The notes under the pieces were generated by a model. It ran no database searches. It saw only the letters and a program-made list of their open reading frames with translations, and was not told the origin of the DNA. The position numbers and the translations under genes were made by a program. This document shows, in pieces, positions 139 through 57,133 of a stretch of 64,000 bases of DNA. This DNA is from Candidatus Nomurabacteria bacterium (GTDB lineage: Bacteria > Patescibacteriota > Minisyncoccia > Phycocordibacterales > UBA9973). Within the stretch, counting starts at the first letter, position 1. Every line of letters starts with the position of its first letter. The DNA lies in assembly GCA_016199805.1 (NCBI GenBank), contig JACQGC010000018.1, forward strand, positions 5,219 through 69,218, written 5' to 3'.

Positions 139-240
139 CCTCACCCCTGACCCCTCTCCAGCCCCATCCCAACCTTCCCCAGATTACTGGAGAAGGAGTT
201 CGAACCCTCTCTGGTACTTCGGAGAGGGCAGGGTGAGGTC
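139..240. repeat. GC-rich inverted repeat, member of the CCTCCCC/GGGGAGG palindrome family
   Basis: cctcacccctgacccctctcc (139-159) pairs with ggagagggcagggtgaggtc (221-240) across an about 60-nt C-rich loop, in the folD/PAP2 spacer. Confidence 0.4.
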
Positions 241-270
241 TGGCGAGGGGAATGTGGTATTATTATAATT

Positions 271-750
271 ATGAACAACAAAATCTTTTTCTTTTTTTAT
301 AATCTAGCTTATCAGTCGCAAGTCTTCGATGCAGTAGTTGTGTTTTTTGCTTTATATTTTCCTTATTTGGTGGCAATTTCAGTATTGGTATTTCTTTTGT
401 ACTTGAATAAAAAGAAAGAAATTTTGCTGACATTTTTCTCTGCAGGGTTGGCCTATGTCTTTGCTTATATATTTAAGCATTTATTCTCCACTTCTAGACC
501 TTTTGATGCCTTTCCGCAAGTTCACTCTCTCGTTGTAGAAACAGGGTACAGTTTTCCTTCCGGCCATGCCACTTTCTTCATGGCCCTGGCTGTGGCTATT
601 TTCTTTTATCACAAAAAAGCAGGTTATGTCTTTATGTTCTTTGCTTTATTGATAGGTCTGGCTCGTGTCATCGCCGGAGTGCATTTTCCGGTTGATATTT
701 TGGGAGGTTTTGTCTTGGGCGGACTGGTTTCTTGCTTGGTTGCCCGGTAG
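271..750 (+). CDS. PAP2-family phosphatase (undecaprenyl-diphosphatase / phosphatidate phosphatase type)
   Basis: Multi-TM protein carrying the PAP2 signature motifs SFPSGH and SR...GVHFPVD. Confidence 0.8.
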   Translation: MNNKIFFFFYNLAYQSQVFDAVVVFFALYFPYLVAISVLVFLLYLNKKKEILLTFFSAGLAYVFAYIFKHLFSTSRPFDAFPQVHSLVVETGYSFPSGHATFFMALAVAIFFYHKKAGYVFMFFALLIGLARVIAGVHFPVDILGGFVLGGLVSCLVAR

Positions 751-852
751 TGAGACTTTGCGACGCGTCTTTAGATGCATGCTTCGCATATCGCAAAGCT
801 CTACTGCCGGGTTGCATTTTTTACAAAAAATGTATAGTATATATACGTATTT

Positions 853-2226
853 ATGATTAAAAAAATTGTTTTATCTATCGTTATATTAGTCCTAGGCACC
901 GGGGTGGCCTTTTTTGTCTATAAGTCCGAGCCCAAGTTAAACAATCAGCTAAACAAGAATTCTGCCACCGCTTCGTCATTTTTCAAAAATCATCCTTTCC
1001 GTTTGGGACTCGATCTCTCCGGAGGAACACATCTCATATACAAAGCCGACACTTCAGCTGTGCCTGCAGGCCAAGTGGGGGATTCAATGGACGCGCTCCG
1101 TGATGTCATCGAAAGACGCGTAAATCTTTTCGGAGTTTCCGAGCCGGTGGTGCAGGTGCAACATGGCGGATTTGTCTCGGGTGCCGGAGAACAGTTGATT
1201 ATCGACCTTCCGGGCGTGACCGATGTAAAACAGGCAATCACCATGATAGGCCAGACCCCGCTTCTGGAATTTAAGACCGAAGCTCCAGCCGGAACTCCGC
1301 AAAAAGCGACCGTAGGCAAAGACGGTAAAGTGGTTTTGGATGTTGGCGGTCAATATGTCGCCACAGAATTGACCGGAAGATATTTGCAAAAAGCAACTTT
1401 GCAATTTGATGCAAATACCCGCGCCCCGACTGTCAGCTTGCAGTTTGATGACACAGGTACCAAACTCTTTGCTGAAATTACCAAAGCCAATGTCGGTAAA
1501 ACCGTGGCTATCTTTCTAGACGGCGCTCCGATATCCACTCCGGTGGTTCGCGAAGAGATTCCAAACGGCCAAGCGGTTATTTCCGGTTCCTTCACTCCAA
1601 CTGAAGCCAAAACCCTGGTTGGCCGACTAAATTCCGGAGCTCTGCCTGTGCCTATCACCCTTCTTTCCACTCAAACCATCGGTGCAATCTTGGGAGACAA
1701 TGCGGTCAACGCGGGAGTCAAAGCCACGGTCATCGGCTTCTTATTGGTGGCTCTTTTTCTTATATTGCTTTATCGTTTGCCTGGCTTGGTGGCGGTGGTG
1801 TCTTTAAGTATTTTTATAGTAATAATCTTGGCGCTTTTCAAACTTATGCCTGTCACGTTGACGGCGGCTGGTATTGCCGGGTTCATAATTTCCATCGGAG
1901 TGGCGGTGGATGCCAACGTGCTTATTTTCGAACGTATTAAAGAAGAATTGCGTTCCGGGCAAAATATCAAAGATGCGGTCAGGCTTGGTTTCTCCCGAGC
2001 ATGGTTTTCTATCCGGGACTCCAACATTTCAAACTTCATCACCGCGGTCATCCTTTTCTGGTTTGGCACATCCCTCATCAAAGGTTTTGCGCTGACCCTC
2101 GGAACGGGAGTCATCGTGTCGATGTTTAGCGCCATTGTCATCACCCGTGTTTTCTTGGGAGCTCTGGGATTCTTAGGGGAAGGCAAGGTCGCCCGATTCC
2201 TATTTTCAAGTGGAATCGGCAAGTAG
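853..2226 (+). CDS. secD: protein translocase subunit SecD
   Basis: 457 aa with an N-terminal TM, a periplasmic domain and a C-terminal 6-TM SecD/SecF core; lies directly upstream of secF. Confidence 0.9.
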   Translation: MIKKIVLSIVILVLGTGVAFFVYKSEPKLNNQLNKNSATASSFFKNHPFRLGLDLSGGTHLIYKADTSAVPAGQVGDSMDALRDVIERRVNLFGVSEPVVQVQHGGFVSGAGEQLIIDLPGVTDVKQAITMIGQTPLLEFKTEAPAGTPQKATVGKDGKVVLDVGGQYVATELTGRYLQKATLQFDANTRAPTVSLQFDDTGTKLFAEITKANVGKTVAIFLDGAPISTPVVREEIPNGQAVISGSFTPTEAKTLVGRLNSGALPVPITLLSTQTIGAILGDNAVNAGVKATVIGFLLVALFLILLYRLPGLVAVVSLSIFIVIILALFKLMPVTLTAAGIAGFIISIGVAVDANVLIFERIKEELRSGQNIKDAVRLGFSRAWFSIRDSNISNFITAVILFWFGTSLIKGFALTLGTGVIVSMFSAIVITRVFLGALGFLGEGKVARFLFSSGIGK

Positions 2227-2304
2227 AAAATTTATCAAGTTATAATGTCCATAAAGAAAATACTTTACAAACTTTAAAAACTTTCAACTTTATAACTAAC
2301 TTAT

Positions 2305-3210
2305 ATGTTTATAATAAATCACAAAAAAATATTTATCGGCATCTCCATATCATTGGTTGTTTTGTCGCTGGCCTCACTTGCCGTATTCGGATTAAAAATC
2401 GGCATCGACTTCAAGGGTGGCGCTTTGACTGAAGTTTCTTACAAAGTGGAACGCCCGGCGCAAGCCACTTTGGAAAAGCCGCTGGCTGATTTGAATTTTG
2501 GCGCCATTATGTTGCAGCCGACGGGTACTTTGGGTTACATAGTAAAGTCCCGAGACTTGAATGATGCCGAGCACACTTCACTTTTGGGCGCGCTTTCGGA
2601 AAACAATGCCGCTCCTCTGACCGAGCTTAGTTTCAATTCCGTCGGACCTTCGGTGGGCAAGGAGCTCACCAGGAAAGCCATTTTGGCCGTTATTTTAATC
2701 TCGCTCGCGATTATTTGCTTCATCGCTTTTGCTTTCCGAAAAGTTTCCAAACCGATTTCTTCCTGGAGATACGGTATCATTGCCATCGTCACACTTTTGC
2801 ACGACGTGGCTATACCTGTCGGAATATTTGTAGTTCTCTCGCATTTTTATGGGGCGGAGGTGGACAGTCTTTTCGTGGTGGCGGTCTTAACCATTCTCGG
2901 TCTTTCCGTTTCCGATACTATTGTCATCTTTGACCGAATCAGGGAAAATTTGAGAAACCAAGCAAGTGTTGCCAAACAAAACTTCAGCGAAATAGTCGGC
3001 AAAAGTTTGTCGCAATCATTTGTGCGTTCCATCTGCACGTCTCTCACTGTCATTCTGGTTCTTCTTTCCCTGTATTTCTTTGGTCCTGAATCCACAAAAT
3101 ATTTTGCCCTGATGCTCACCGCCGGAATGTTCTTCGGAACCTATTCCTCGATTTTCCTAGCCTCACCGCTACTAGTCTGGGTAGAAGAGTGGCAGAAAAA
3201 GCAGAAATAA
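2305..3210 (+). CDS. secF: protein translocase subunit SecF
   Basis: 301 aa; begins KIGIDFKGGALTEVSY, has a C-terminal multi-TM SecD/SecF domain, and is adjacent to secD. Confidence 0.9.
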   Translation: MFIINHKKIFIGISISLVVLSLASLAVFGLKIGIDFKGGALTEVSYKVERPAQATLEKPLADLNFGAIMLQPTGTLGYIVKSRDLNDAEHTSLLGALSENNAAPLTELSFNSVGPSVGKELTRKAILAVILISLAIICFIAFAFRKVSKPISSWRYGIIAIVTLLHDVAIPVGIFVVLSHFYGAEVDSLFVVAVLTILGLSVSDTIVIFDRIRENLRNQASVAKQNFSEIVGKSLSQSFVRSICTSLTVILVLLSLYFFGPESTKYFALMLTAGMFFGTYSSIFLASPLLVWVEEWQKKQK

Positions 3211-3304
3211 CCTATATAAAATAAGCATAAAAAATCCATTTTCAAAATGGATTTTTTATGCCATACTTTATGGGTTATAAATTATTATTTTAACTATATT
3301 TATT

Positions 3305-4775: not shown

Positions 4776-4802
4776 TTTGAATTCAGAATTACCACCCCTA
4801 AC

Positions 4803-4824
4803 CCCTCCTTAATCAAGGAGGGGA
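4803..4824. repeat. 22-bp perfect palindrome CCCCTCCTTAATCAAGGAGGGG (intergenic copy)
   Basis: Exact inverted symmetry. The identical 22-mer recurs at 38803-38824 inside a CDS. Confidence 0.7.
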
Positions 4825-4870
4825 GGAAAACAAAATTCCTATTTTTCAGTGTTTCTGTTATACTATTTTT

Positions 4871-5147: not shown

Positions 5148-5257
5148 ACCTGTCCCGTACTAAATTTTTTAGAAAATATATTATGATAAAATATAATTAG
5201 AAAGAAAAAAGAAATGAAAATTATTAATAAAAATTTAAAATTTTAGTACTGGGATGA
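5148..5257 (+). repeat. bipartite stem-loop element (copy 1) between gatC and gatA
   Basis: acctgtcccgtactaaattt ... aatttaaaattttagtactgggATGa. The ends are inverted repeats (cccgtactaaa / tttagtactggg) around an AT-rich loop. A second copy lies at 47230-47306. The element ends in the gatA start codon. Confidence 0.45.
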
Positions 5258-17150: not shown

Positions 17151-17167
17151 ATAGATTCAAAAATCCA

Positions 17168-17211
17168 TCCACCCCGTCTCGGAGTACCGAGCCACCCCTC
17201 AAGAGGGGAAT
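17168..17211. repeat. GC-rich palindromic element (contains CCCCTCAAGAGGGG), inverted copy of the 17612-17650 element
   Basis: ccaccccgtctcggagtaccgagccacccctcaagaggggaat. Its reverse complement resembles attcccctcttgaggggtggc...ggggtgga downstream of the DUF559 gene. Confidence 0.5.
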
Positions 17212-17228
17212 CATGCAATCCAAAATCC

Positions 17229-17624
17229 ATGTACCCATATTGGGATATTCCTAAAAATAAACTTTTAGCAGAAAGAACTAGAGATTTAAGAAAAGCTGGT
17301 AATTTGGCTGAGGTTTTGTTTTGGAAAATATTTAATGACAAAAAGAAATTAGGTTTTGATATAGATAGACAAGTAATTATAGGTCAATACATAGTAGATT
17401 TTTTAATTCCCGAACTTGGCTTAGTTTTTGAAATAGACGGCTCCAGCCACGATTCAAAAATAGAATATGATGCGGAAAGGGATGCTTTTATGAAAGACTT
17501 AAATTTGCAGGTGATTAGAATATCTGACTTAGAGGTGAAAAACAACTTAAGTAGCATTTACCACTTAGTGTTAGAGACAGTTGAAAAAAGAAAACAGGAG
17601 GTATTGGAATTATTCCCCTCTTGA
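17229..17624 (+). CDS. DUF559 endonuclease-domain protein (Vsr-like fold)
   Basis: RQVIIGQYIVDFLIPELGLVFEIDGSSHDSKIEYDAERDAFMKDLNLQVIRIS matches the DUF559 pattern. The last codons and the TGA stop lie inside the downstream palindromic repeat. Confidence 0.75.
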   Translation: MYPYWDIPKNKLLAERTRDLRKAGNLAEVLFWKIFNDKKKLGFDIDRQVIIGQYIVDFLIPELGLVFEIDGSSHDSKIEYDAERDAFMKDLNLQVIRISDLEVKNNLSSIYHLVLETVEKRKQEVLELFPS

Positions 17625-17650
17625 GGGGTGGCGCTTGCGCCGGGGTGGAT
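17612..17650. repeat. GC-rich palindromic element attCCCCTCTTGAGGGGtGGCGCTTGCGCCggggtgga
   Basis: Two nested hairpins (CCCCTC-TT-GAGGGG and GGCGC-TT-GCGCC). A nearly identical copy is at 19906-19944. Confidence 0.6.
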
Positions 17651-17718
17651 ATATTTTACTTCTTGACAACCCGCTTCCAATAAAATATACTTAGTCTACC
17701 TAACTATTAGGTAGACAT

Positions 17719-19905: not shown

Positions 19906-19990
19906 ATTCCCCTCGTTGAGGGGTGGCGCTTGCGCCGGGGTGGAAATGCATCCACCTCCCCCTAAAGGGTACTCCTCAAGAGGAGAATAA
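19906..19990. repeat. cluster of GC-rich palindromic repeats between the adaptor and MFS genes
   Basis: attcccctcgttgaggggtggcgcttgcgccggggtgga (a copy of the 17612 element), then GGTGGAaatgcaTCCACC, then CTCCTCaaGAGGAG. Confidence 0.6.
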
Positions 19991-26630: not shown

Positions 26631-26684
26631 TTTCGGCCGAGCTTTAATGGACGATTGCGCGGCATGATTTCGCAAAATCAAATG
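26631..26684 (+). repeat. about 45-nt conserved leader element (copy A); second copy at 35801-35850
   Basis: gcTTTAATGGACGATTGCGCGGCATGATTTCGC(a/t)AAATCAAAT is shared. It forms hairpin GCCGNGC...GCGCGGC and contains an ATG opening a short uORF in copy B. Confidence 0.45.
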
Positions 26685-35800: not shown

Positions 35801-35850
35801 AAGCCGCGCTTTAATGGACGATTGCGCGGCATGATTTCGCTAAATCAAAT
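35801..35850 (+). repeat. about 45-nt conserved leader element (copy B)
   Basis: See 26631-26684. Hairpin GCCGCGC-N14-GCGCGGC followed by ATGATTTCGCTAAATCAAAT (a uORF MISLNQIL*). Confidence 0.45.
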
Positions 35851-38681: not shown

Positions 38682-39191
38682 ATGGAACCAAAAAATAATT
38701 CACAAAAAAATATAGCCATCGCCCTAGTCGCCGTCGCCATAGCCGCAGTTTTATCTGTGCCTATTTTCTTGGGAAAGAAAACCACCACCCTGCCTTCGGC
38801 ACCCCTCCTTAATCAAGGAGGGGATGGGAGTGGTAATTCTACTCCAGTCGTTTCGAAAACTCCTCCGGTAGACGTTCCCAAGAAAACTCTTTCGGTTTAC
38901 AAAGATGGCACCTATACGGCTACAGGTTCTTACGATTCTCCGGGTGGAATGGATAAAGTCACCGTCACCCTTACGCTAAAAAGTGATGTCGTCACCGATG
39001 TTTCGGTGACTCCGATAGCAGGTGATAGTCTTTCAAAGAAATATCAGGATATGTTTGTCTCCGGCTACAAGCAATTTGTCGTCGGGCAAAAAATAGCCGG
39101 CTTGCAGCTCTCAAAAGTTTCCGGTTCATCTCTTACTCCAATCGGTTTCAACGCTGCGCTCACCCAAATAAAAGCGCAAGCCAAGGCATAG
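38682..39191 (+). CDS. FMN-binding domain protein (extracytoplasmic flavoprotein)
   Basis: TM, then YKDGTYTATGSYDSPGGMDKVTVTLTLK...TPIGFNAAL (FMN_bind; the conserved Thr/Ser flavinylation site context). Confidence 0.7.
   Translation: MEPKNNSQKNIAIALVAVAIAAVLSVPIFLGKKTTTLPSAPLLNQGGDGSGNSTPVVSKTPPVDVPKKTLSVYKDGTYTATGSYDSPGGMDKVTVTLTLKSDVVTDVSVTPIAGDSLSKKYQDMFVSGYKQFVVGQKIAGLQLSKVSGSSLTPIGFNAALTQIKAQAKA
38803..38824. repeat. 22-bp palindrome CCCCTCCTTAATCAAGGAGGGG embedded in-frame in the FMN-binding protein CDS
   Basis: Identical to 4803-4824. Encodes PLLNQGG within a low-complexity linker after the TM. Confidence 0.7.
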
Positions 39192-40096: not shown

Positions 40097-40516
40097 ATGC
40101 CCCATTTCAGCCATGGCGTAAATGGGGCAGTGTGGTATCATATATACATGAGCCCAAGATATAAAGGTATGCGAGTAAATGCTTTCGGTTTGCCAGCATT
40201 TAAAAATGGCAGGAAAAGCCGTGCAAAAACTGAAAACAGGAAAAAATCTTTTTATCATGTCACTTTTCTTTCACCTTTTAAAAAAGATTCTTCAAAGAAT
40301 TTGATTGTAATGTACGACATTCCACATTTACAGAAAAAGGAGCGGGATTGGTTTCGTCGGCAATTAATAAAATTTGATTATATAATGATTCAAAAAAGTG
40401 TTTGGGTTGGACCGTCTCCACTACCCAAAAATTTCTTAGACTACTTAAAAGAAATAAAAATAGGGGATAAGTTTAAAACCTTTACATTGGCAAAATCTTA
40501 TACAGAAAAACTTTAA
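40097..40516 (+). CDS. hypothetical small protein with a Cas2/VapD-like C-terminal half
   Basis: NLIVMYDIPHLQKKERDWFRRQLIKFDYIMIQKSVW...GDKFKTFTLA resembles the Cas2 pattern (hydrophobic strand-YD, ...R..R..L...G..IQ.SVF, ...D.V.I..L). The ORF start lies inside a palindrome, so the true start may be internal. Confidence 0.4.
   Translation: MPHFSHGVNGAVWYHIYMSPRYKGMRVNAFGLPAFKNGRKSRAKTENRKKSFYHVTFLSPFKKDSSKNLIVMYDIPHLQKKERDWFRRQLIKFDYIMIQKSVWVGPSPLPKNFLDYLKEIKIGDKFKTFTLAKSYTEKL
40098..40129. repeat. 32-bp palindrome TGCCCCATTTCAGCCATGGCGTAAATGGGGCA (near-perfect; upstream copy)
   Basis: Centred on CCATGG; differs from the downstream copy by a CA/AC swap. Confidence 0.75.
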
Positions 40517-40537
40517 TTTACTACATTACTTACCGAC

Positions 40538-40569
40538 TGCCCCATTTACGCCATGGCGTAAATGGGGCA
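40538..40569. repeat. 32-bp perfect palindrome TGCCCCATTTACGCCATGGCGTAAATGGGGCA (downstream copy)
   Basis: Its reverse complement equals itself. Second copy 440 bp upstream; together they bracket the Cas2-like ORF. Confidence 0.8.
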
Positions 40570-40617: not shown

Positions 40618-42360
40618 GTGGAATCACAAACTAAACAGTGCCAGAATTGCCAGAAAGACTTTATAATAGAGCCGGATGATTTCGGTTTTTACGAGAAAAT
40701 AAAAGTCCCTCCGCCGACCTTTTGCCCGGAATGCCGGCTACAAAGGCGCTTGGCCTGGCGTAACGAGCGGGCCTTGTACAAACGCAAGTGCGGTTTATGC
40801 CAAAAAAGTATTATTGCAATGTATCATGAATCCATGCCATTTCCCGTATATTGTCGAGAGTGTTGGTTCGGAGATGGATGGGACCCAACTTTATATGGAA
40901 AGAAATACGATTTCAATAGAACATTTTTCGAACAATATAAAGAATTTTCAAATACTGTGCCCAGGCTAGCTTTGTGGCAAAGGAGTTCTACAAATTCAGA
41001 TTATTCCAATATGGTTGGAGAATCGAAAAATGTATATCTATCTTCTTCGGTTGTAAAAGAATCAGAAAATGTTTTTTATTCAAAGTCGGTAGATAGATCC
41101 AGAGATATCGTTGATTGTTTAAATATAATAAACGGATCAGAGAGTTTGTATGAGAACGTGGAAGCACAAAGTAATTATAATTCTCAATATCTTTTACTCT
41201 GCAGGAGTTGTTTGGATTCATACTATTCTGTTGATTGTATAAATTGTAGTAATTGTTTTCTTTCTTACAATTTGCGAAATAAAAAATTTTGTATTCGCAA
41301 TCAGCAATATGAAAAGGAAGATTATTTTAAGAAAATAGAAAAATTAAATTTAAGGAGCAGGGCTTCACGTGATTTTTTGCTGGAAGAATTTGCAGAAATT
41401 AAAAAGAAGGCAATTTATCGTTTTGGAAATATCACTAAATGTATTAATGTGACAGGAAATAATCTTTTGAATGTAAAAAATGGTAAAGATTGTTTTGAAA
41501 TTTATGATGTGGAAAATGCGAAATATTGTTATCGAGCGTTTAATCTCAAAGACTGTATGGATTTTGATTATGGAGGGTGGTCAGAATTGATGTATGAGTA
41601 CGTAACTGGCAGTCTAAATGATTATAATGTTAAATTTAGTTATTCTGCGATGGAATCCGTAAGAAATGCCGATTATACGGAATTTTGTCGAAATTGTTCT
41701 AATCTGTTTGGTTGTATTTCACTTAAAAATACAGAAAATGCAATTCTGAATATAATTTATTCCAAGGAAGAATACGAAAAACTCCGGACGCAAATCATGG
41801 AACATATGAATAGCAATCCATTTATAGACAAAGCAGGCAAAGTTTATCGATATGGAGAATTTTTTCCTATAGAAGTTTCTCCTTGGGTATATAATGAGAC
41901 TTTGTCTCAGGAATTTTTCCCAATTACCAAAGAAGAGGCGGAGAGGAATGGTTATCCATGGCGGGAACCGGATGTAAAAAATTTCGAGATTACAATTCCT
42001 ACAGAAAACATTCTGGACAATATTGACGATGTTAGTGAAGATATTTTAAAAGATGTTCTGGGTTGTGCCCACGCAGGAGAGTGTGCTCATCAATGCAATA
42101 CTGCTTTTCGTTTAACAAACTATGAACTGGTTTTTTATAAAAAACATAACATACCGCTTCCAATTCTTTGCCCCAACTGTCGTTATTACGAAAGATTCAA
42201 AGTTATGCCAGCATTGAAATTATGGCACAGGCAATGCATGTGTGATAAGAAACACACGCACCATGAGGGCAGATGCGAGATTGAATTTGAGACCAGCTAT
42301 GCGCCAGATAGGCCGGAAATAGTATATTGTGAAAAGTGTTACCAGCAGGAGGTTTACTAG
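40618..42360 (+). CDS. 580-aa cysteine-rich protein with N- and C-terminal zinc-ribbon modules and a central Asn/Ser/Cys repeat region
   Basis: GTG start after an extended -10 (GCTATAAT). Termini: CQNC-17-CPECRLQRR...C.LC and CPNCRYYERF...C.C, each with the shared FY.K..(V/I)P.P..CP.CR motif. The middle has about 20-aa periodic repeats (C.NCSN.F...). Confidence 0.6.
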   Translation: MESQTKQCQNCQKDFIIEPDDFGFYEKIKVPPPTFCPECRLQRRLAWRNERALYKRKCGLCQKSIIAMYHESMPFPVYCRECWFGDGWDPTLYGKKYDFNRTFFEQYKEFSNTVPRLALWQRSSTNSDYSNMVGESKNVYLSSSVVKESENVFYSKSVDRSRDIVDCLNIINGSESLYENVEAQSNYNSQYLLLCRSCLDSYYSVDCINCSNCFLSYNLRNKKFCIRNQQYEKEDYFKKIEKLNLRSRASRDFLLEEFAEIKKKAIYRFGNITKCINVTGNNLLNVKNGKDCFEIYDVENAKYCYRAFNLKDCMDFDYGGWSELMYEYVTGSLNDYNVKFSYSAMESVRNADYTEFCRNCSNLFGCISLKNTENAILNIIYSKEEYEKLRTQIMEHMNSNPFIDKAGKVYRYGEFFPIEVSPWVYNETLSQEFFPITKEEAERNGYPWREPDVKNFEITIPTENILDNIDDVSEDILKDVLGCAHAGECAHQCNTAFRLTNYELVFYKKHNIPLPILCPNCRYYERFKVMPALKLWHRQCMCDKKHTHHEGRCEIEFETSYAPDRPEIVYCEKCYQQEVY

Positions 42361-42383: not shown

Positions 42384-42406
42384 CCTCCCCCTAATGTAGG
42401 GGGAGG
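42384..42406. repeat. palindrome CCTCCCCCTA-ATG-TAGGGGGAGG
   Basis: 10-bp arms. Nearly identical element at 56997-57018 (CCTCCCCCTACGTAGGGGGAGG). Confidence 0.7.
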
Positions 42407-42441
42407 TTAGGTGGGGGTATAATTTAGTGCTGAGGTGAATT

Positions 42442-47229: not shown

Positions 47230-47306
47230 ACCTGTCCCGTACTAAATTTCACCTAAAAACAAATGACCACTATTATTAACAATTTAAAATTTTAGTACTG
47301 GGATGA
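47230..47306 (+). repeat. bipartite stem-loop element (copy 2) between the thioredoxin-like and DsbB-like genes
   Basis: Same end sequences as 5148-5257, including the ...tagtactgggATGa start-codon context. Confidence 0.45.
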
Positions 47307-47854
47307 ACCCTGTCACCATTCACTATTTAAACGTTTCTCTGGGGTTTGGGGTTATCATTGCCCAGATTTTTTGTGTCGTGGCTTTATTTTTACTGTTTTT
47401 CGGACCGAAAAAGAATTTTTATCTTGATTTCATAAACAAGCATGTTCTCATTTTGGGGTTTTTGATTTCTTTTGTCTCCGCGGTGTTTCCCTTAGTCTAT
47501 TCCGAAATCATTCATTTTCTGCCGTGTTATCTGTGCTGGTGGCAGAGAGTTTTTATGTTCCCGTTGGTGCTGATGTTCGCAGTTGCTTTATGGGACAAAG
47601 ACAGAAAAGTGATTCGTTATGCTCTGCCACTGCTCTGTGCGGGTTTCCTTGTCTCTCTATATCAGAATTTTTTCTATTATTTTGGAGAAAGTTCGGCTTT
47701 ACCCTGCGACGCATCCGGAGTTTCCTGTTATCAGCACCTAGTTTCCGAATTTGGCGGGTACATTTCAATACCAATGATGGCGCTCACGGCCTTTTTTGCC
47801 TTGCTGACTCTTCTGGTTGTTGCTCATTTTTATGGAAAGAATAAAATAGATTAG
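47303..47854 (+). CDS. DsbB/BdbC-like disulfide bond formation protein
   Basis: 4 TM with paired Cys motifs (LPCYLCWWQR and C..SGVSC). Confidence 0.7.
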   Translation: MNPVTIHYLNVSLGFGVIIAQIFCVVALFLLFFGPKKNFYLDFINKHVLILGFLISFVSAVFPLVYSEIIHFLPCYLCWWQRVFMFPLVLMFAVALWDKDRKVIRYALPLLCAGFLVSLYQNFFYYFGESSALPCDASGVSCYQHLVSEFGGYISIPMMALTAFFALLTLLVVAHFYGKNKID

Positions 47855-51576: not shown

Positions 51577-54033
51577 ATGAATAAAAAAATAATTTCTTTT
51601 CTTACAATATTTTTTCTGATTACAACAATGTTGAATTTTCTATTGTTTTTTACTTCGCAGCGTACATATGCTGTCATGACCGTAAATGCCTTGGTGGTAG
51701 GTGCTGGCGGCGGCGGCGGTGGTGCTGGCGGCGGCGGCGGTGGTGCTGGCGGTTATTTAGTTGATGCTACTCACGTTGTAACGGCACAGGCATACACTAT
51801 TACAGTTGGAGGTGGAGGTACAGGATCGACTGGTAACACGGCTACAGCTGGAGGCAATAGCGTTTTTGATACACTGACAGCTGTCGGTGGAGGTAAAGGT
51901 GCTGGGGCAGTTGGTGGTAATATCAATAATGGTGGTAACGGAGGATCAGGTGGCGGAGGATCAGGAGTAAACGGAGGTACTTCAAGCGGAGGTACGGGTA
52001 GTCAAGGTCAGAGTGGAGGTGGTAATGGAGGGTTTGCTGGAAGTGGTCCTGGAGGAGGAGGAGGAGGAGCATTAACAGCAGGAACTAGTGGGACATCCAC
52101 TACTGTAGCAGGAGTTGGAGGGAACGGTATAGCTAATAGCATTTCTGGCGTTTCAGTGACTTATGCTGGAGGAGGAGGCGGCGGAATGTATAACAATGGT
52201 ACCCCTGGTTCTGGTGGAGCAGGAGGAGGCGGAACAGGTACTAATCAGGGTCTCGGTGGCGGGAATGGAACTTCTAATACTGGTGGTGGTGGTGGTGGAG
52301 CTGGTAACACACAATCTGGAGGACAGGGTGGTTCAGGCGTCGTGATTATCGCCTACCCAACCGGATCACTTACAGCTACTGGCGGTACTATTACAACTAG
52401 TGGTGGAAATACCATTCATACTTTTACGGTTAGTGGTACATTTACCGTGTCATCTTCTGCCGCTACTTCTTACACCATCACTCCTCCATCGCCAGCTTCC
52501 GGTGGTGTAGGGAATGCCTCCGGAAATTTCACGGTCGCTGCAAACGGTCCGTACACTGGTAGTATGACACTTTCCGATGGCGGAGCTGGTGGAACTTTTT
52601 CCCCAACATCACTAACCTTTTCAAATTCTTCTTCGCAAACATTTACGTACACACCGTCTACTCTTGGAGTAAGAACAATCAGCACTGCCGCTTCTCCGGC
52701 CTTAGGAACTGATCAAAGTACCACATATACTTCTTTATCAACTGCCAAAGCTATCACTTTATTTAATTTTAATGGACTTGCCCCCACTGTGACTGGTGTA
52801 GTCACTGAAGGCTCTCACACCATAGCTCTGACGGTTCCATTTGGTACGAACGTCACGGCCTTGGTAGCGACTTTCACAACTACCGGAAGTTCAGTCGCCG
52901 TTGGAGCAACAACACAGGTAAGTGCAACTACACCAAACAATTTCACGTCTCCAGTTACCTATACCGTCACCGCTGCTGACAGCTCTACTCAACCGTATGT
53001 TGTTACAGTGACAGTAGCTCCGAATTCTGCTAAAGCCATCACGGCATTTAATTTCACCCCTCCGGCCACCACAGTCATAATTGACCAGGGGGATCATACC
53101 ATCAGCATGTTTGTTCCAAATGGTACAAATGTCACGGCTTTAGTTCCGACAACTATCACCATTACCGGAGCATCTGTCAGTCCAAACGTGGGTGTTGCTC
53201 AAGATTTTTCCACTTCAAAAATATATACTGTTACTGCCGCTGATGGTTCCACCCAGCCGTACACAGTTTCAGTGACGGTAGCCGCCGCGGTTCCACCCGT
53301 TTTGTTTCTTAGTGACACTATTCTCGCTCTGACTTCTCCGGTTGTTAATCTTACGGCTCTTACTGGTTCTGCAGCAGACTCCGTGACGGTAAATGCAGGT
53401 AACGTGGTTGTTGTCATTTCTTCCACTTATGGTGGCAACTTTAGGTTAACTTCACCAGTAGCAATGACAGTCACCGGAGGCACAATTTCTCAAACTTGTT
53501 CAACCGGAGTAGAAACCGAAACCATCACTCAAGTAAGTGGCACGGGCACATACACACTTACTCCGACTGGTTCCGCTTGCAGCGGTGGGGCAGTAGTAAC
53601 TCCATCCGGTGGCGGGGGATTGATTACTGACTATGTTCCGCCTGCAGTCACTCCTCCGGCAGCAGTAGACAATAATAACCAAAATGGAATATTGCCTCCA
53701 CCGCCGACAACCACCACAACTCCATCGATAGTCACTCCTCCGGCAACAATTCCAGTTCCTCCCGTTGTTCCTGTTAATCCTCCACAAACAACAGGAGGAC
53801 AAACGTCTTATAACTTTGGCCCGACCACTCTGAAGTTTTGGAGCCAAGGTGAAGGCGTCAAAGAATTGCAAAGATTCTTGAACAATGAATTAAAGCTTGG
53901 TCTAACAATAGATGGCAGATTGGGCTTAAAGACAATTACTGTCATAAAAAAATGGCAGAAAGCGCATGGACTCACTCCCGACGGATTGATTGGCGCCAAG
54001 ACCAAGGCTTTGATGAATAAGTTGGCAAAATAA
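51577..54033 (+). CDS. Gly-rich/Thr-rich cell-surface protein with a C-terminal PG_binding_1 domain
   Basis: Signal peptide; GGGGGAGGGGGGAGG tracts encoded by a 21-bp tandem repeat (51703-51750); Ig-like Thr-rich repeats. The C-terminal 60 aa are near-identical to the ORF at 10591. Confidence 0.7.
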   Translation: MNKKIISFLTIFFLITTMLNFLLFFTSQRTYAVMTVNALVVGAGGGGGGAGGGGGGAGGYLVDATHVVTAQAYTITVGGGGTGSTGNTATAGGNSVFDTLTAVGGGKGAGAVGGNINNGGNGGSGGGGSGVNGGTSSGGTGSQGQSGGGNGGFAGSGPGGGGGGALTAGTSGTSTTVAGVGGNGIANSISGVSVTYAGGGGGGMYNNGTPGSGGAGGGGTGTNQGLGGGNGTSNTGGGGGGAGNTQSGGQGGSGVVIIAYPTGSLTATGGTITTSGGNTIHTFTVSGTFTVSSSAATSYTITPPSPASGGVGNASGNFTVAANGPYTGSMTLSDGGAGGTFSPTSLTFSNSSSQTFTYTPSTLGVRTISTAASPALGTDQSTTYTSLSTAKAITLFNFNGLAPTVTGVVTEGSHTIALTVPFGTNVTALVATFTTTGSSVAVGATTQVSATTPNNFTSPVTYTVTAADSSTQPYVVTVTVAPNSAKAITAFNFTPPATTVIIDQGDHTISMFVPNGTNVTALVPTTITITGASVSPNVGVAQDFSTSKIYTVTAADGSTQPYTVSVTVAAAVPPVLFLSDTILALTSPVVNLTALTGSAADSVTVNAGNVVVVISSTYGGNFRLTSPVAMTVTGGTISQTCSTGVETETITQVSGTGTYTLTPTGSACSGGAVVTPSGGGGLITDYVPPAVTPPAAVDNNNQNGILPPPPTTTTTPSIVTPPATIPVPPVVPVNPPQTTGGQTSYNFGPTTLKFWSQGEGVKELQRFLNNELKLGLTIDGRLGLKTITVIKKWQKAHGLTPDGLIGAKTKALMNKLAK

Positions 54034-54035
54034 AG

Positions 54036-54644
54036 ATGCTGGGTTTTACCCAAAAAGAAAAAGCATTGTTCCAAAAATTAAACACCCCATCAAAAGTGCA
54101 AGATTTTTTGAACAGTTTGAAGTTTAATTTTGAAAGGGGCGGGGAGACATTAAAAAGCCCACTTTTTACTAGTAGGCATAAGAATGCGCATTGCTTTGAA
54201 GCTGCGCTCCTCGGGGCTTATATGCTCTCCCTGCAGGGTTTTAAGCCTTATTTGGTTCATCTAAAGTCTACCATAGAGGATTACGACCACGTGATTGCGC
54301 CTTTTAAAATAGGTGGATTTTGGGGAGCTTTATCCAAAACTAATCATGCTGTCCTGCGATACCGCGAACCAATTTACAAAAACATCCGCGAGCTGGCTAT
54401 GTCGTATTTTCATGAATATTTTTTAAATAGTGGAGAAAAAACCTTAAGGCAATATTCAGAATTATTTAATTTGAATAATTTAAATAAAGATTGGGTAACC
54501 AGAGAGGGGAACCTTTGGGATATAGATAAAAAGCTTGATAAAATAAAACATTATGACATTGTGCCAAAAGTTTATATAAAGAAATTGAGAAAAGCGGACA
54601 ACTTAGAAATTAAGGCGGGGAAAATTGTGGAATGGAAAAAGTAG
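54036..54644 (+). CDS. hypothetical protein
   Basis: 202 aa, soluble; a conserved Cys/His (AHCFEAALLGAY) suggests a possible papain/transglutaminase-like fold but this is unconfirmed. Confidence 0.5.
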   Translation: MLGFTQKEKALFQKLNTPSKVQDFLNSLKFNFERGGETLKSPLFTSRHKNAHCFEAALLGAYMLSLQGFKPYLVHLKSTIEDYDHVIAPFKIGGFWGALSKTNHAVLRYREPIYKNIRELAMSYFHEYFLNSGEKTLRQYSELFNLNNLNKDWVTREGNLWDIDKKLDKIKHYDIVPKVYIKKLRKADNLEIKAGKIVEWKK

Positions 54645-54685
54645 AGTATAATATAGAATTATTATTAGTTTAACACAAAAAAACC

Positions 54686-55066
54686 ATGCCCATTTTATTT
54701 ATTTTTGGTAGAGTTTTGTTCGGGGGTTACTTTATTATGAGCGGTTACAATCATTTCAGGCATCATCGCATGTTCACGGGCTATGCGCAGTCCAAGGGCG
54801 TGCCTTTGGCGCCGCTAGCCGTGTGGTTCACCGGTTTGATGCTCATCTTTGGAGGGGTGGGAATACTTCTCTGGGTTTACTTAAAATTTTCAATTATTTT
54901 ATTAGCTGTATTCTTGCTCGTGACGACTTTAGTCATGCATCAGTACTGGAAAGTCACCGACCAAAACATGAGAATGACAGAGCAAATCAACTTCAATAAA
55001 AACATGGCGCTTTTGGGTGCTTTACTTCTCTTTTTTTCTATTCCTCTGCCTTGGTCGGTTTCTTAA
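54686..55066 (+). CDS. DoxX-family membrane protein
   Basis: LFIFGRVLFGGYFIMSGYNHF..., 4 TM. Confidence 0.75.
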   Translation: MPILFIFGRVLFGGYFIMSGYNHFRHHRMFTGYAQSKGVPLAPLAVWFTGLMLIFGGVGILLWVYLKFSIILLAVFLLVTTLVMHQYWKVTDQNMRMTEQINFNKNMALLGALLLFFSIPLPWSVS

Positions 55067-56727
55067 TTGCCGAAAATATTTCCGAGCAATCTCATAAACC
55101 AATTCTTTTTTGGAGTTTCCGTCTGCGGTACTTCGGGAGCTGGTGTGAGCGCATTTATTACTGATGCGGTGTTTTGAGTGCTGGGATTATTTGCGACATT
55201 CATTGATTTTGGTTTAGGGTTTTTTGTTGCGCTTATTTCCGGGATGGGGGCGCTTTTTACTTTTACTAGTGGGGTTTCCGTGACTGCTGGCATTTCCGGT
55301 TTTGTAAAACTTTGCATTACCTGGTTCCAGCTTTTGCCGGAAAGGGCAGAGGTTACATAGGCGGTTTCCCAGGTTTTATTGGTAACGCTTTCATTTTTTA
55401 CTCCGCCGTCCGTGTCTTGGATTGTTGCCAAATAATCAGATGGAGTATTGCCATTTTTTGCCCAATCTTCCGGTTTTTCATTCATGGCCAATATTCCTTC
55501 CAGTGCCCAAGCGGTGGAAGAAGCATTGTCATTCCAGCTACCGTCATCTTTTTGATTTTGTTTTAAGAAATCTTCAGCCTTAGTTAAAGCATTTGGTATC
55601 TTTTCCTCCCCTGACAAGGGGAGGGCAGGGAGGGGTTGTATTTTATTGAACATTGCCAGCGCCTCTATCGCCGCGCCGGTCATATCCACAGAACCATCCC
55701 AAGAACCGTTTGTGTTTTGCTCGCTCAAAACAAAGGAGATGTCAGCATTTATCATTTGGTCATTTTGTGTGTAACCGGCATTTTGCAGAACAATCAATGC
55801 AAAGATGTCGTCATTGTCTTGGTTTGCATCTCCGAATTGTTTGCCGTCGAAAGAATCGGTTATTTTTTTGATATAATTTTCGCCGTTGGTGTCGTATGGG
55901 TTGAGTCCGAGCGACATCAATGCCATAGCATGTCTTTCATAATCGGTTATATTTAAAGCTGTGATTTTTGAAATCCCAAAATATTTTATCAATTTCAATA
56001 CCTGCGCCTGATTGTTTCCGGAAGCCAGAGATAAAGCAGCCCAGTCGGTGTATAAATCGGAACCCCAAGACCCGTCGGCGTTTTGTTGTGCAATCAAAAA
56101 ATCGTAAGCTTTTTGTGTGTCAAAAGCTAGCTTGGCGGGTGGTGTAGCTGGGGCTGTTATCGTAGGTGAATCGGTAGTAGTGGGGTTTGTATATGTAATA
56201 AGCGGACCTCCGCCACTACTTACGGGGATTAATGAATTAATGTGAAGTATTACTTGGTCGCTTGCAGTGCTGCCAGGAGCCCAATTATCAATCTTAAAAA
56301 TTATCGTATCTTGCGCCACCACTGGCAGGGAAGAAATACCAAGCATAGAAAAATTATCTGGCGAAGTTCCATTTTTATATATTGCCCAATATTGGCTAGA
56401 TGGATCAGGCACAACGTCATTAATTGAGTCAATCTGTAATCCAAGACCCGGAAAATTTGAAAATTTTGCACCCAAAACCGAAGAGCCGTTTTTTGTTGCA
56501 GCATCAAATGCACAAATAGCTAGATAAGAACCCATAGAAGTTGTTTCTGGGTAACTATATACTACTCCATTCTTGTCGGTTACTGTACAGCTGGCTGGTA
56601 CATCTATCATTATGTCAATGTTTAGCGGTGCCGCATGCGCTGTGCCAAAAAAACCAAGAACCATAAAACCTAGCAACACTATTTTAAAAATTTGATTTTT
56701 CATATTTCCAGGAGACCATGTCCCCAA
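55063..56727 (-). CDS. secreted prenyltransferase/squalene-oxidase-repeat (alpha/alpha-toroid) protein; transcobalamin alpha-domain-like
   Basis: Signal peptide; repeated QxxDGSWG motifs (DGSWGSD, NGSWDGS, DGSWNDN) characteristic of PFTB/terpene-cyclase repeats. Confidence 0.7.
   Translation of the reverse strand: MGTWSPGNMKNQIFKIVLLGFMVLGFFGTAHAAPLNIDIMIDVPASCTVTDKNGVVYSYPETTSMGSYLAICAFDAATKNGSSVLGAKFSNFPGLGLQIDSINDVVPDPSSQYWAIYKNGTSPDNFSMLGISSLPVVAQDTIIFKIDNWAPGSTASDQVILHINSLIPVSSGGGPLITYTNPTTTDSPTITAPATPPAKLAFDTQKAYDFLIAQQNADGSWGSDLYTDWAALSLASGNNQAQVLKLIKYFGISKITALNITDYERHAMALMSLGLNPYDTNGENYIKKITDSFDGKQFGDANQDNDDIFALIVLQNAGYTQNDQMINADISFVLSEQNTNGSWDGSVDMTGAAIEALAMFNKIQPLPALPLSGEEKIPNALTKAEDFLKQNQKDDGSWNDNASSTAWALEGILAMNEKPEDWAKNGNTPSDYLATIQDTDGGVKNESVTNKTWETAYVTSALSGKSWNQVMQSFTKPEMPAVTETPLVKVKSAPIPEISATKNPKPKSMNVANNPSTQNTASVINALTPAPEVPQTETPKKNWFMRLLGNIFGN
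55605..55624. repeat. palindrome CCTCCCCTGACAAGGGGAGG inside the - strand CDS
   Basis: Same family as 139-240. Encodes PLSGEE in-frame. Confidence 0.6.
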
Positions 56728-57133
56728 TTTTTATTTTATAATTTGAAACGCCGACAGACGCTTCGACCCCGTTCACATAATAAATCCAACTCATACTATT
56801 ATTATTTTTTATTTCATTTATGCTATCAATGAATTTTCCCATTCCGGTGTACTCTTTTTCAGTAAAGTTAATTTTTTTCTCACTCCGGAGCTTGTCCATA
56901 AAGTCATAAACACTCGTTTCACCCGGTATATCGTCTTTTAGGTCTAATTTCTTTATCTCGGGAGTTGTTTTTGGCGGTGAAAGTACCCCTACCCGTCCTC
57001 CCCCTACGTAGGGGGAGGAGAAAGGAGGGGGTATATACCTAGAATTTTGCTTTTGAATATTTTTATAAACAAAAATAGAGCCCAGACAAGCTATAAGTAA
57101 AACTATTAAAATTATTTTCTTGGTTTTAAACAT
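56684..57133 (-). CDS. DUF4430 domain protein (transcobalamin beta-domain-like)
   Basis: TM, then YVNGVEASVGVSNYKIKIGDMVSWKY C-terminal DUF4430 signature. Start taken at the ATG at 57133 so that the upstream terminator hairpin is not coding. Confidence 0.7.
   Translation of the reverse strand: MFKTKKIILIVLLIACLGSIFVYKNIQKQNSRYIPPPFSSPYVGGGRVGVLSPPKTTPEIKKLDLKDDIPGETSVYDFMDKLRSEKKINFTEKEYTGMGKFIDSINEIKNNNSMSWIYYVNGVEASVGVSNYKIKIGDMVSWKYEKSNF
56997..57018. repeat. palindrome CCTCCCCCTACGTAGGGGGAGG inside the DUF4430 CDS
   Basis: Near-identical to 42384-42406. Encodes SPPYVGGG in-frame. Confidence 0.65.

Follow-up and report, generated by a model that had tools for sequence, protein, structure and literature searches.

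The window analysed here is a stretch of 64,000 nucleotides from a contig of Candidatus Nomurabacteria, with a GC content of 42.7%. It carries a set of short GC-rich hairpins, together with a gene for a DUF559 protein that is bracketed by two of them. All nine palindromic sites listed in the initial annotation were found again, and the expectation that they exceed what composition alone would give was confirmed: perfect hairpins whose arm is C-rich, made up of pyrimidines only and 6 nt or longer occur at 11 sites, versus 0.41±0.62 (maximum 3) in 200 dinucleotide shuffles, and GC-rich perfect hairpins with a stem of at least 7 nt occur 8 times, versus 1.07±1.09 in 60 shuffles. The eleventh hairpin (53778-53799), which has no G-rich tail, is probably due to chance. 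What had been described as a single CCTCCCC family proved to comprise at least six sequence sub-families, and the palindromes, while real as units, are only the cores of composite modules of 36-124 nt. That first reading had overlooked the length of the modules, the inverted bracketing of the DUF559 gene on both sides, and the conservation of gene and module across phyla. None of the sites scored at or above the gathering threshold of any Rfam family. The features are as follows.

139..257, plus strand: type F composite nested array, directly 3' of the stop of a folD-like gene; outer palindrome CCTCACCCC-TGA-CCCCTCTCC ... GGAGAGGG-CA-GGGTGAGG, enclosing the hairpin CCTTCCCCAG ATTA CTGGAGAAGG (173-196) and a hairpin at 205-228; DNA fold -25 kcal/mol, z = -2.4.
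4785..4826, minus strand: type E module, intergenic between a TPM-domain gene (stop 4775) and gatC (start 4871); on the minus strand CCCCTCC TTGATTAA GGAGGGG TTA GGGGTGGTAA; fold z = -3.1.
17160..17214, minus strand: left-hand type A module of the DUF559 cassette, beginning 10 nt past the pyrG stop; ATCCACCCCG - hp2 (CTCGGAGTACCGAG) - CCACCCCTC AA GAGGGG AAT.
17229..17624, plus strand: DUF559 (PF04480) gene, 131 aa, Vsr-like PD-(D/E)XK nuclease; Pfam E = 7.9e-22.
17609..17656, plus strand: right-hand type A module of the DUF559 cassette; ATTCCCCTC TT GAGGGG TGG - hp2 (GCGCTTGCGC) - CGGGGTGGAT.
19906..19944, plus strand: solo type A module, beginning 2 nt past the stop of an HlyD-like gene; first half of an A+B doublet.
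19949..19990, minus strand: type B module, inverted partner of the type A module at 19906; TCCACCTCCC - CCTAAAGGG - TACTCCTC AA GAGGAG AAT; fold of the whole doublet -19.9 kcal/mol, z = -3.2.
38775..38840, plus strand: type E module including both flanks, in frame within the linker that follows the membrane helix encoded by an FMN-binding-like gene; CCACCACCC - TGCCTTCGGCA - CCCCTCC TTAATCAA GGAGGGG - ATGGGAGTGGTAA, encoding TTTLPSAPLLNQGGDGSGN; fold z = -5.95.
42384..42419, plus strand: type C module, intergenic, after a stop at 42360; CCTCCCCC TAATGTA GGGGGAGG TTA GGTGGGGGTA; fold z = -3.7.
55605..55640, plus strand: type D module, inside a 554-aa prenyltransferase/terpene-cyclase-like gene on the minus strand; CCTCCCC TGACAA GGGGAGG GCA GGGAGGGG TTG, encoding the inserted IQPLPALPLSGEEK.
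56984..57035, no strand assigned: type C module, full 52-nt palindrome, in frame in the linker of a DUF4430 gene on the minus strand; TACCCCTACCCGT CCTCCCCC TACGTA GGGGGAGG AGAAAGGAGGGGGTA, encoding IPPPFSSPYVGGGRVGV.

The modules share a common anatomy. A sequence-conserved hairpin, hp1, has its loop between a pyrimidine arm and a purine arm, and in every type A module it follows ATT. It is followed by a short linker or by an optional second hairpin, hp2, which is free in sequence with its pairing kept: changes on both sides were found at all 8 pairs, with a covariation score of 0.441 versus 0.151 after shuffling (0/500). Among hp2 loops, 37% are C(GNA)G triloops, which are typical of very stable DNA mini-hairpins. 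The module ends in a G-rich tail mirroring the hp1 purine arm, and arm and tail covary in this mirror sense in independent types (GAGGGG>GGGGTG, GGAGGGG>GGGGTGG, GAAGGGG>GGGGTAG, AGAGGGG>GGGGTGT, AAAGGGG>GGGGTAT, GGGGAGAGGG>GGGTGAGGGG). Types A and B are one C/T and one G/A transition apart. The other sub-families of the window keep the same mirror rule and recur in other Paceibacteria contigs, where some directly abut type A. The tail GGGTGAGG of the type F array mirrors its arm GGAGAGGG, and the CCTCACCCCTRACCCCTCTCC unit of that array is present in other contigs, twice abutting a type A module; a near-identical copy of the type E unit at 4785 adjoins a type A module in L093; further copies of the type C module at 42384 occur in L104, L115 and L134, and of the type D unit in L108, L118 and L193. 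Close matches also exist within the window. The 22-mer CCCCTCCTTAATCAAGGAGGGG, reported as an exact duplicate, is indeed identical at 4802-4823 and 38802-38823, with a likeness that reaches 39 nt at 87% in inverted orientation; the composites at 17612 and 19906, said to be nearly equal, are 97% identical over 32 nt (17621-17652 versus 19916-19947); and the left type A module of the cassette forms an inverted repeat with 17609-17632 (24 nt at 96%).

G.T wobbles and tandem G.A mismatches are found only on the G-rich strand. Models in which arm and tail are direct repeats, or alternative Watson-Crick pairing partners, both fail for several types. Tentatively, and with the odds against it, the sequence patterns could mean that the modules are single-strand DNA devices, in which the G-rich strand would fold hp1, the mirror tail would fold back along the purine arm to form an antiparallel purine-motif triplex (G.G-C, T.A-T, A.A-T) with hp2 as the turn, and DUF559 would be the structure- and sequence-specific recogniser. 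If true, selfish DNA would gain a new class, separate from REP/RAYT and spread over more than 10 bacterial phyla, and DUF559, a very large family of unknown function, would be given a role.

The DUF559 gene is present in a single copy in the window, with pyrG and a MarR-family gene as neighbours and no adjacent cytosine methyltransferase; a marR promoter-like site lies at 17663, 3' of the right-hand module. Besides DUF559, the Pfam scan gave a second match, below the cutoff, to MTES_1575. The closest solved structure is 3HRL, an endonuclease-like protein (E = 5e-12), and the D/E/H motif columns D57, E68, D70 and H74 are invariant among homologues. The two type A modules bracket the gene in inverted orientation, with a solo A+B doublet at a distance of 2.3 kb. 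As had been proposed, a repeat supplies the last codons and the stop of the gene, the frame ending TTC CCC TCT TGA within the hairpin at 17615-17628. Close homologues (70-87% identical) all end in ...FPS*, and most start with a translated module; since the module is translated in different frames (HPSRGE or PPLKRG), conservation acts at the DNA level. In Paceibacteria the cassettes are tail-out; the reading frame overlaps hp1 at both ends and, in all homologues, terminates within the hp1 loop.

Bracketing of the gene by modules was also found across a comparison set of 80 related DUF559 loci spread over about a dozen phyla, with many host labels taken from binned MAGs. An hp1 hairpin lies within 230 bp of the gene ends in 78 of the 80; in about 70, the surroundings of the gene score higher for inverted repeats than any of 368 shifted controls, which peak at 30. 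With the strict module pattern, 47 of the 75 judgeable loci have modules on both sides, inverted in 43, and module density is 3.18 per kb beside the gene versus 0.017 per kb at more than 1 kb. In 33 loci outside Paceibacteria, the gene is bracketed in the layout of gene-free A+A doublets (hp1-hp2-tail / spacer / tail-hp2-hp1). Even distant DUF559 genes (30-38% identity) from Deinococcus, Sinorhizobium, Sphingobium and Synechocystis have hairpin-plus-tail inverted repeats on their flanks, scoring 41-208 versus at most 24 in controls. Module type follows the nuclease clade and not the host phylum: in 74 of 78 cases a protein and its nearest neighbour share a module type, types cross host phyla, and mean protein identity is 0.706 within a type versus 0.570 between types (0/1000 permutations). 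One filled and one empty site could be compared. In D. proteolyticus, hpaE and an oxidoreductase gene overlap, and in Deinococcus NW-56 a cassette of about 530 bp lies between them on the opposite strand. There was no clear target-site duplication at this one comparison, where a possible 3-4 nt (G/A)TGA repeat coincides with the stop/start overlap and is indistinguishable from codon selection. In a published screen, 'DUF559 domain-containing protein' was 14-fold enriched among predicted inversion targets, i.e. inverted-repeat-associated genes (PMC9881135).

Most modules are found away from any such gene. In fragmented metagenome contigs searched with an exact 19-mer, 7 of 94 judgeable hp1 matches lie within 150 bp of a DUF559 gene, and a broader HMM gave 7 of 87 module copies near one, so that a DUF559 gene is missing from the vicinity of more than 90% of the metagenome copies sampled. 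On a replicon of S. meliloti, the flanking module occurs in at least 40 places, with one matching gene. The other copies are mostly solo or doublets, in both orientations relative to genes and mainly just 3' of them; in metagenomes, 26 of 129 type A copies belong to A+B doublets of the 19906 kind and 12 of 129 to gene-free inverted A+A doublets. About one-sixth of copies are in frame in tolerant parts of proteins, and about 83% lie outside long open frames. The three in-frame copies noted before in the window, measuring 36-66 nt, are indeed inside open frames (38802 in ORF 38682-39191; 55605 in ORF 55063-56727 and 56997 in ORF 56684-57172, both on the minus strand), and alignments of homologues for the three proteins support the suggestion that they are lineage-specific insertions. 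In the 554-aa protein, the inserted segment IQPLPALPLSGEEK is 12 residues long and 36 of 39 homologues lack it, and in the DUF4430 and FMN-binding-like proteins the element is present in a subset of homologues only, always in a hypervariable linker. These copies are conserved at the nucleotide level far above the flanking codons: the type C element (56984..57035) is identical at 50 of 51 nt to two orthologues whose flanks have diverged to 40-60% identity, and the type E element (38775..38840) has about 93% nucleotide identity to the P0002 gene versus 40-70% in the flanks.

We favour the reading, at a probability of roughly 0.6, that the palindromes form part of a superfamily of REP-like, short composite modules coupled genetically to DUF559, a Vsr-like PD-(D/E)XK nuclease. 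The pattern is that of REP/RAYT, with a Vsr-like nuclease taking the place of the tyrosine transposase. DUF559 genes and modules are shown to be associated, and a role of the enzyme in spreading or maintaining the modules is inferred. DUF559 might bind the folded G-rich strand or the cruciform of its cognate module and then nick it, host repair or replication might copy or homogenise the modules by dispersal or gene conversion, and the gene-plus-module cassette might act as a selfish unit and pass from genome to genome. For types C, D, E and F, with no DUF559 partner within the window, shared grammar, co-occurrence and the analogy with other phyla suggest the same link. We know of no strand-transfer activity in a 131-aa nuclease domain of this kind. 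Against mobility, no transposition event was directly seen in the sequences compared, and module positions are kept between two syntenic Paceibacteria genomes (L002 and L004), which points to slow turnover or to elements that are maintained rather than mobile. No description of the DUF559-module link was found in the literature searched; Caulobacter VsrA, the sole DUF559 protein with experimental data, was read as a mismatch-repair nuclease (PMC12907096).

Other explanations have to be weighed against this one. DUF559 could be a free-standing, homing-type selfish gene that uses pre-existing modules and doublets, with an origin and a host function of their own, as landing sites: the nuclease would cut the centre of an empty doublet, and repair would copy the gene in, with the two modules as homology arms. 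We consider this unlikely, in spite of the gene-free inverted A+A doublets that share the layout of the 33 gene loci outside Paceibacteria, the occurrence of the cassette in unrelated contexts and within operons, and the use of a Vsr-like EDxHD fold by a known homing endonuclease family, as cited in PMC9403480. The Paceibacteria layout is reversed, and its tail-out modules, overlapped by the frame at both ends with the stop in the hp1 loop, look like co-evolved ends; the dispersal of solo modules is left unexplained, as is the tracking of type and clade across phyla unless the target is transferred together with the gene.

Less probable still is that the modules are host-beneficial structures (transcript-end stabilisers, protein-binding or nucleoid sites, triplex or G-quadruplex DNA) and that DUF559 is a very-short-patch-type T:G nickase keeping the C/G-rich sites of an AT-rich genome safe from C-to-T decay, thus maintaining the modules and not mobilising them. 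The Vsr fold of DUF559, the proposed action of Caulobacter VsrA on T:G mismatches (PMC12907096), the near-invariance of the modules while nearby DNA diverges and the positions kept between syntenic genomes all agree with it, as does the A+B doublet, which when folded would show one T:G and one C:A mismatch because of the transitions between the two types. The many copies just after stop codons also speak for it. Both orientations relative to genes would be unexpected for a role at the transcript level. This reading leaves unexplained the inverted bracketing of the gene in nearly every locus, the insertion on the opposite strand into unrelated operons and the nested or composite arrays, and the gene in the window has pyrG and marR beside it instead of a cytosine methyltransferase. 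Finally, we give hardly any credence to ordinary intrinsic terminators or chance low-complexity sequence, a reading refuted by counts and contexts. Several copies do lie just 3' of stop codons (139, 4785, 19906, 42384), but the 11 hairpins stand against 0.41 expected, three copies lie within genes, and the same sequences turn up in further genomes and phyla. On the sense strand the hairpins are not followed by a T-run, and a terminator scan flagged only 19923-19909 and 17186-17170, both antisense. The motif excess and the missing T-tracts support the original suggestion of a selfish, REP- or MITE-like repeat rather than terminators.

The coupled modules and nuclease that we favour most resemble the REP/REPIN elements and their REP-associated tyrosine transposases (RAYT), reportedly described by Nunvar in 2010, Bertels and Rainey in 2011 and Ton-Hoang in 2012. 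Both consist of short GC-rich imperfect palindromes, mostly intergenic, as singles and inverted doublets; both include a low-copy nuclease gene flanked by inverted copies, with its own repeat type for each enzyme clade and copies that greatly outnumber the gene. By contrast, the partner here is a Vsr-like PD-(D/E)XK DUF559 protein and not an HUH/Y1 transposase of the IS200/IS605 kind, and a Pfam scan of the bracketed gene gave no match to Y1_Tnp. There is no conserved GTAG or CGTC head, GTAG occurring in the modules of the window only within the type C loop-to-arm junction. The modules add a structure-only hp2 and a mirror-image G-rich tail, in-frame copies within genes are common, and the range covers CPR, Planctomycetota, Bacteroidota, Proteobacteria, Deinococcota, Cyanobacteria and other phyla.

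The likeness to Rickettsia palindromic elements drawn in the initial annotation stands in function, as both are palindromic in-frame insertions tolerated as extra peptide and absent from orthologues, but not in size or sequence. Those elements are about 100-150 bp long and restricted to Rickettsia and relatives, and we know of no nuclease associated with them, whereas the elements here are 36-66 nt, strongly GC-rich, mostly intergenic and hosted by Candidatus Nomurabacteria. Classical Vsr is co-transcribed with a cytosine methyltransferase, and we know of no report of repeat elements flanking its gene. DUF559 shares its fold and catalytic core as a small stand-alone protein, and Caulobacter VsrA is likewise unlinked to a methyltransferase gene (PMC12907096); the mismatch activity of the present clade is putative. 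The EDxHD homing endonucleases of the I-Bth0305I family also place a Vsr-like nuclease domain in a selfish element, but they sit in group I introns or inteins and have an extra DNA-binding region, whereas the DUF559 gene is free-standing, encodes the nuclease domain only and has inverted hairpin modules on its flanks. MITEs (Correia/NEMIS, Nezha, RUP, BOX) and the cyanobacterial small dispersed repeats, the latter reportedly described by Elhai in 2008, are likewise small and non-autonomous, with nested insertions and occasional in-frame copies. MITEs carry target-site duplications and share their terminal inverted repeats with an IS element that has a DDE transposase; no clear instance of either was seen for the modules examined, nor was any transposase beside them. 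For the cyanobacterial repeats we know of no assigned enzyme. Since a Picosynechococcus DUF559 gene has hairpin-plus-tail units on its flanks, these repeats may, by analogy and as a lead, belong to the same DUF559-module superfamily.

The nine GC-rich palindromes of the initial annotation were all located in the window sequence, but they proved to be only the cores of longer modules. Its claims of copying also hold: the 22-mer at 4802 equals that at 38802, with a likeness that reaches 39 nt in inverted orientation, and 17621–17652 and 19916–19947 are 97% identical. The window, with a GC content of 42.7%, belongs to a contig of Candidatus Nomurabacteria (CPR/Patescibacteria). Perfect hairpins with a C-rich, pyrimidine-only arm are clearly in excess over the expectation from composition, with 11 in the window versus 0.41 ± 0.62 in 200 dinucleotide shuffles; for GC-rich perfect hairpins with a stem of at least 7 nt, the corresponding figures are 8 and 1.07 ± 1.09. 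The initial annotation favoured a mobile or selfish repeat over simple terminators, and intrinsic terminators were indeed rejected because none of the sites carries a T-tract on the sense strand. At gathering thresholds, Rfam placed no family at any palindrome site; its matches in the window are five tRNAs and a cobalamin riboswitch, and nothing else. A tRNA relic at 139–257, the region that holds GAGTTCGAACCC, was likewise rejected, as ARAGORN found no tRNA there. The hairpin at 53778–53799, which lacks a tail and lies inside a coding repeat, was excluded from the family and probably arose by chance. The 818-aa ORF in which it lies (51577–54033) also contains a low-complexity, glycine-rich coding stretch at 51700–52300, made of GGT/GGC-rich 21-nt repeats that are both tandem and dispersed.

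Read on the G-rich strand, a module opens with the conserved hairpin hp1 (pyrimidine arm, loop, purine arm), continues with 2–3 nt or a small second hairpin (hp2), and closes with a G-rich tail. Six sequence types are present in the window:

Module types in the window, with the positions of their copies
Type A, at 17160, 17609, and 19906: ATTCCCCTC-TT-GAGGGG-TGG-hp2-CGGGGTGGA
Type B, at 19949: ATTCTCCTC-TT-GAGGAG-TAC-hp2-GGGAGGTGGA
Type C, at 42384 and 56984: CCTCCCCC-loop-GGGGGAGG-TTA-GGTGGGGGTA
Type D, at 55605: CCTCCCC-TGACAA-GGGGAGG-GCA-GGGAGGGG
Type E, at 4785 and 38775: CCCCTCC-loop-GGAGGGG-TTA-GGGGTGGTAA
Type F, at 139–257, nested with another hairpin: CCCTCTC(C)-loop-GGAGAGGG-CA-GGGTGAGG

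All six types have stable predicted folds as single-stranded DNA. Sequence is kept in hp1 and in the tail, not in hp2, for which 216 unique modules display 167 different sequences. What is maintained in hp2 is pairing. In the 46-nt class, two-sided changes are found at all 8 pairs, and the covariation score is 0.441 versus 0.151 after shuffling (reached in 0 of 500 shuffles), slid controls scoring far lower; in the 40-nt class, pairing is 100%, with covariation at 3 of 4 pairs. G.T wobbles and tandem G.A mismatches are confined to the G-rich strand. C(GNA)G triloops, a mark of very stable DNA mini-hairpins, account for 77 of 210 hp2 loops, a share that hints at single-stranded DNA as the folded species. 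The tail mirrors the purine arm, such that G faces G, and T or A faces A. At the first variable position, tail and arm change together, with (A,A) in 21 modules, (G,G) in 142, and off-diagonal combinations in 8, and the same mirror rule is valid for the Sinorhizobium and Deinococcus modules and for types C–F of the window. Judged by its symmetry alone, this geometry would be that of an antiparallel purine-motif triplex, and the rule predicts a natural intramolecular DNA triplex. Two other models of the tail were discarded: alternative Watson-Crick pairing with the pyrimidine arm does not fit (for example, CCCCTC versus GGGGTG), and a direct repeat of GGGGTGG breaks down for the GAAGGGG/GGGGTAG and AGAGGGG/GGGGTGT types.

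The single DUF559 (PF04480) gene of the window, at 17229–17624, encodes a 131-aa Vsr-like PD-(D/E)XK nuclease and has inverted type A modules on both sides, the right-hand one, as initially described, supplying its last codons and stop. Its homologues are 70–87% identical across many Paceibacteria, far above the level of neighbouring proteins. All of them end in FPS*, and most begin with a translated left module, read in differing frames (HPSRGE or PPLKRG). The gene contexts are unrelated: pyrG and marR in the window, rpoD and dsbA in the Paceibacteria contig L003, and a type IV pilus cluster in contigs L002 and L004. In L003, the gene lies just downstream of rpoD, and a Sphingomonas DUF559 gene lies just upstream of dnaG-rpoD. 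Phages and plasmids were rejected as vehicles of the cassette, since close DUF559 relatives were found in neither (one phage match at 35%; all plasmid matches below 60%). The PADLOC matches were all partial and weak (E no better than 1e-4), and DUF559 is therefore not assigned to a defence system.

The bracketed arrangement extends well beyond Paceibacteria. Scanning one genome per species with a protein pattern yielded 80 DUF559 loci from Paceibacteria, Brocadiaceae, Gracilibacteria, Dojkabacteria, Flavobacteriia, Ignavibacteria, Methylotenera, Desulfobulbaceae, Cycloclasticus, Cloacimonadota, Nitrospirota, spirochaetes, and others. Complete genomes that are cassette carriers include NZ_CP123443.1 (Ca. 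Haliotispira prima), OZ253439.1 (Polaribacter), and JAJTXE010000002 (Brocadia), as well as S. meliloti and Deinococcus. When the 200 nt upstream of each gene were compared with the 200 nt downstream, about 70 of the 80 loci had an inverted-repeat score above that of every shifted control (368 controls; mean 17.8, maximum 30), and the repeats had the same module grammar in every case. An hp1 hairpin lies within 230 bp of the gene ends in 78 of 80 loci. Under a strict pattern, modules occupy both sides of the gene in 47 of 75 judgeable loci and are inverted in 43 of these 47, with tails pointing toward the gene in 33 and away from it in 10, all of the latter in Paceibacteria. Module density is 3.18 per kb adjoining the gene versus 0.017 per kb at more than 1 kb. 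Distant DUF559 genes (30–38% identity) from isolates of Deinococcus, Sinorhizobium, Sphingobium, and Synechocystis have the same arrangement, with module sequences of their own. In Deinococcus, a cassette of about 530 bp on the opposite strand separates two hpa-operon genes that overlap in a sister species, and this one filled-versus-empty comparison shows that the cassette is a discrete insertion. Cassettes on the opposite strand within otherwise co-directional operons are recorded for the Deinococcus hpa operons (L219, 6381–6893; L221, 6378–6866) together with loci L220 and L223, and two Deinococcus species carry the cassette at different junctions of one operon.

Most module copies sampled from metagenomes lie away from any DUF559 gene. 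At least 120 metagenome stretches contain an exact 19-mer of hp1, and only 7 of 94 judgeable copies (7 of 87 with a broader HMM) are within 150 bp of a DUF559 gene. Single copies make up 91 of the 129 type A modules; a further 26 belong to A+B doublets such as that at 19906–19990, and 12 to inverted A+A doublets. One S. meliloti replicon has at least 40 places for the flanking module, unannotated in all matches listed, and one matching DUF559 gene. The 119 nt flanking DUF559 in the S. meliloti locus L216 (6368–6486) match 902 places in 285 rhizobial replicons, namely plasmids and chromids of Rhizobium, Sinorhizobium, Azospirillum, and Shinella; this region may correspond to repeats long known in rhizobia as intergenic mosaic or Sm repeats. 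Types C–F of the window recur in other Paceibacteria contigs, some abutting type A or nested in one another. Module positions are kept between syntenic genomes, which argues for slow turnover. The module type at a locus follows the nuclease clade: protein identity is 0.706 within and 0.570 between module types (0 of 1000 permutations), and the nearest protein neighbour is of like type in 74 of 78 cases, with each type occurring in several phyla.

One rival explanation, homing of DUF559 into pre-existing doublets, we regard as unlikely. The two hp1 of A+B doublets (window, L091, L104, L105, L112, L113, and other contigs) differ at two fixed positions, CCCCTC/GAGGGG versus CTCCTC/GAGGAG, in every genome seen. 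Folded as one long hairpin, such a doublet would contain one T:G and one C:A mismatch, a point of interest given that the partner enzyme is folded like a nuclease for T:G mismatches. A repair role, in which DUF559 would guard modules from C-to-T decay, draws support from VsrA of Caulobacter, a DUF559 protein that has been interpreted as a nuclease acting on mismatches (PMC12907096), and seems to us less probable still than homing.

The peptides of the in-frame copies had been suspected to be lineage-specific insertions, and they are indeed missing from most homologues or variable among them. In a 554-aa prenyltransferase/terpene-cyclase-like protein, 12 inserted residues, IQPLPALPLSGEEK, are missing in 36 of 39 homologues, and two others carry different hairpin-like inserts at the same spot. 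Many DUF4430 homologues contain IPPPFSSPYVGGGRVGV, others an LPLxKGEE variant, and others no insert, always in a hypervariable linker after the membrane helix. The FMN-binding-like protein (169 aa, ORF 38682–39191, identical to NCBI HY311_03875) shares APLLNQ(G/V/S) with 3 of 29 aligned homologues. The DUF4430 element of the window matches that of two orthologues at 50 of 51 nt, against 40–60% identity in the flanks, and the FMN-binding-like element shows about 93% identity. With element DNA near-identical amid diverged flanks, the conserved object is, on sequence comparison, the DNA and not the peptide. In the metagenome sample, 18 of 109 type A modules lie inside long open frames.

The DUF4430 and 554-aa genes, both with in-frame modules, adjoin a cobalamin riboswitch (RF00174, 57223–57362, minus strand; 36.6 bits, gathering score 31.5). 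Its position directly upstream suggests B12 control of the two genes, which may serve uptake or binding. The window contains other repeats as well. A 34-nt palindrome, TGCCCCATTTxxGCCATGGCGTAAATGGGGCA (40098–40131 and 40536–40569; copies 94% alike), flanks a 139-aa ORF (40097–40516) with weak PaaX_M/Cas2-like matches; an AT-rich stretch resembling a promoter comes after each copy, and the palindrome, outside the module family, looks like the operator of an autoregulated small regulator. A 48-nt direct repeat, GCCGAGCTTTAATGGACGATTGCGCGGCATGATTTCGCAAAATCAAAT (26636–26683 and 35803–35850), has two copies that are 96% identical and lie 9 kb apart; it bears no relation to the palindromic family. 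An AT-rich direct repeat of 52 nt (5206–5257 and 47255–47306; 88% identical) runs up to the gatA start codon (5254) in one copy and to that of ORF 47303–47854 in the other, and may be a shared promoter or leader.

To our knowledge, no biological role has been assigned to DUF559, a large bacterial family. Genome annotations of many phyla contain GC-rich sequences of the hairpin-plus-tail kind, along with the Pro/Gly/Ser/Arg-rich 'junk' peptides that these encode. Within the searchable literature, we found no report tying DUF559 to repeats and no paper with the exact 14-mers of the palindromes; the nearest published hint is the enrichment of DUF559 proteins among predicted inversion targets (PMC9881135). 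If the coupling is functional, DUF559 gains a role, and one common origin is explained both for lineage-specific peptide insertions and for mis-called extensions of ORFs, the N-terminal ones of DUF559 proteins among them. With an enzyme of 131 aa and a substrate near 45 nt, the system would also make a simple model for studying the spread or uniformity of short palindromic repeats.

The pattern has four parts: a nuclease gene in low copy number between inverted copies of a short palindromic module, numerous solo or paired modules elsewhere, cognate types of enzyme and repeat, and an occurrence across phyla. It is the pattern of REP repeats and their RAYT genes. Two differences can be noted: the enzyme is a Vsr-like PD-(D/E)XK nuclease, whereas RAYT is a tyrosine transposase, and the modules lack the GTAG head. 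The modules are classed here as REP-like repeats that have another partner enzyme and a grammar not described before and, should the coupling be functional, would form a second, mechanistically different REP-like system in which a PD-(D/E)XK nuclease replaces the tyrosine transposase.
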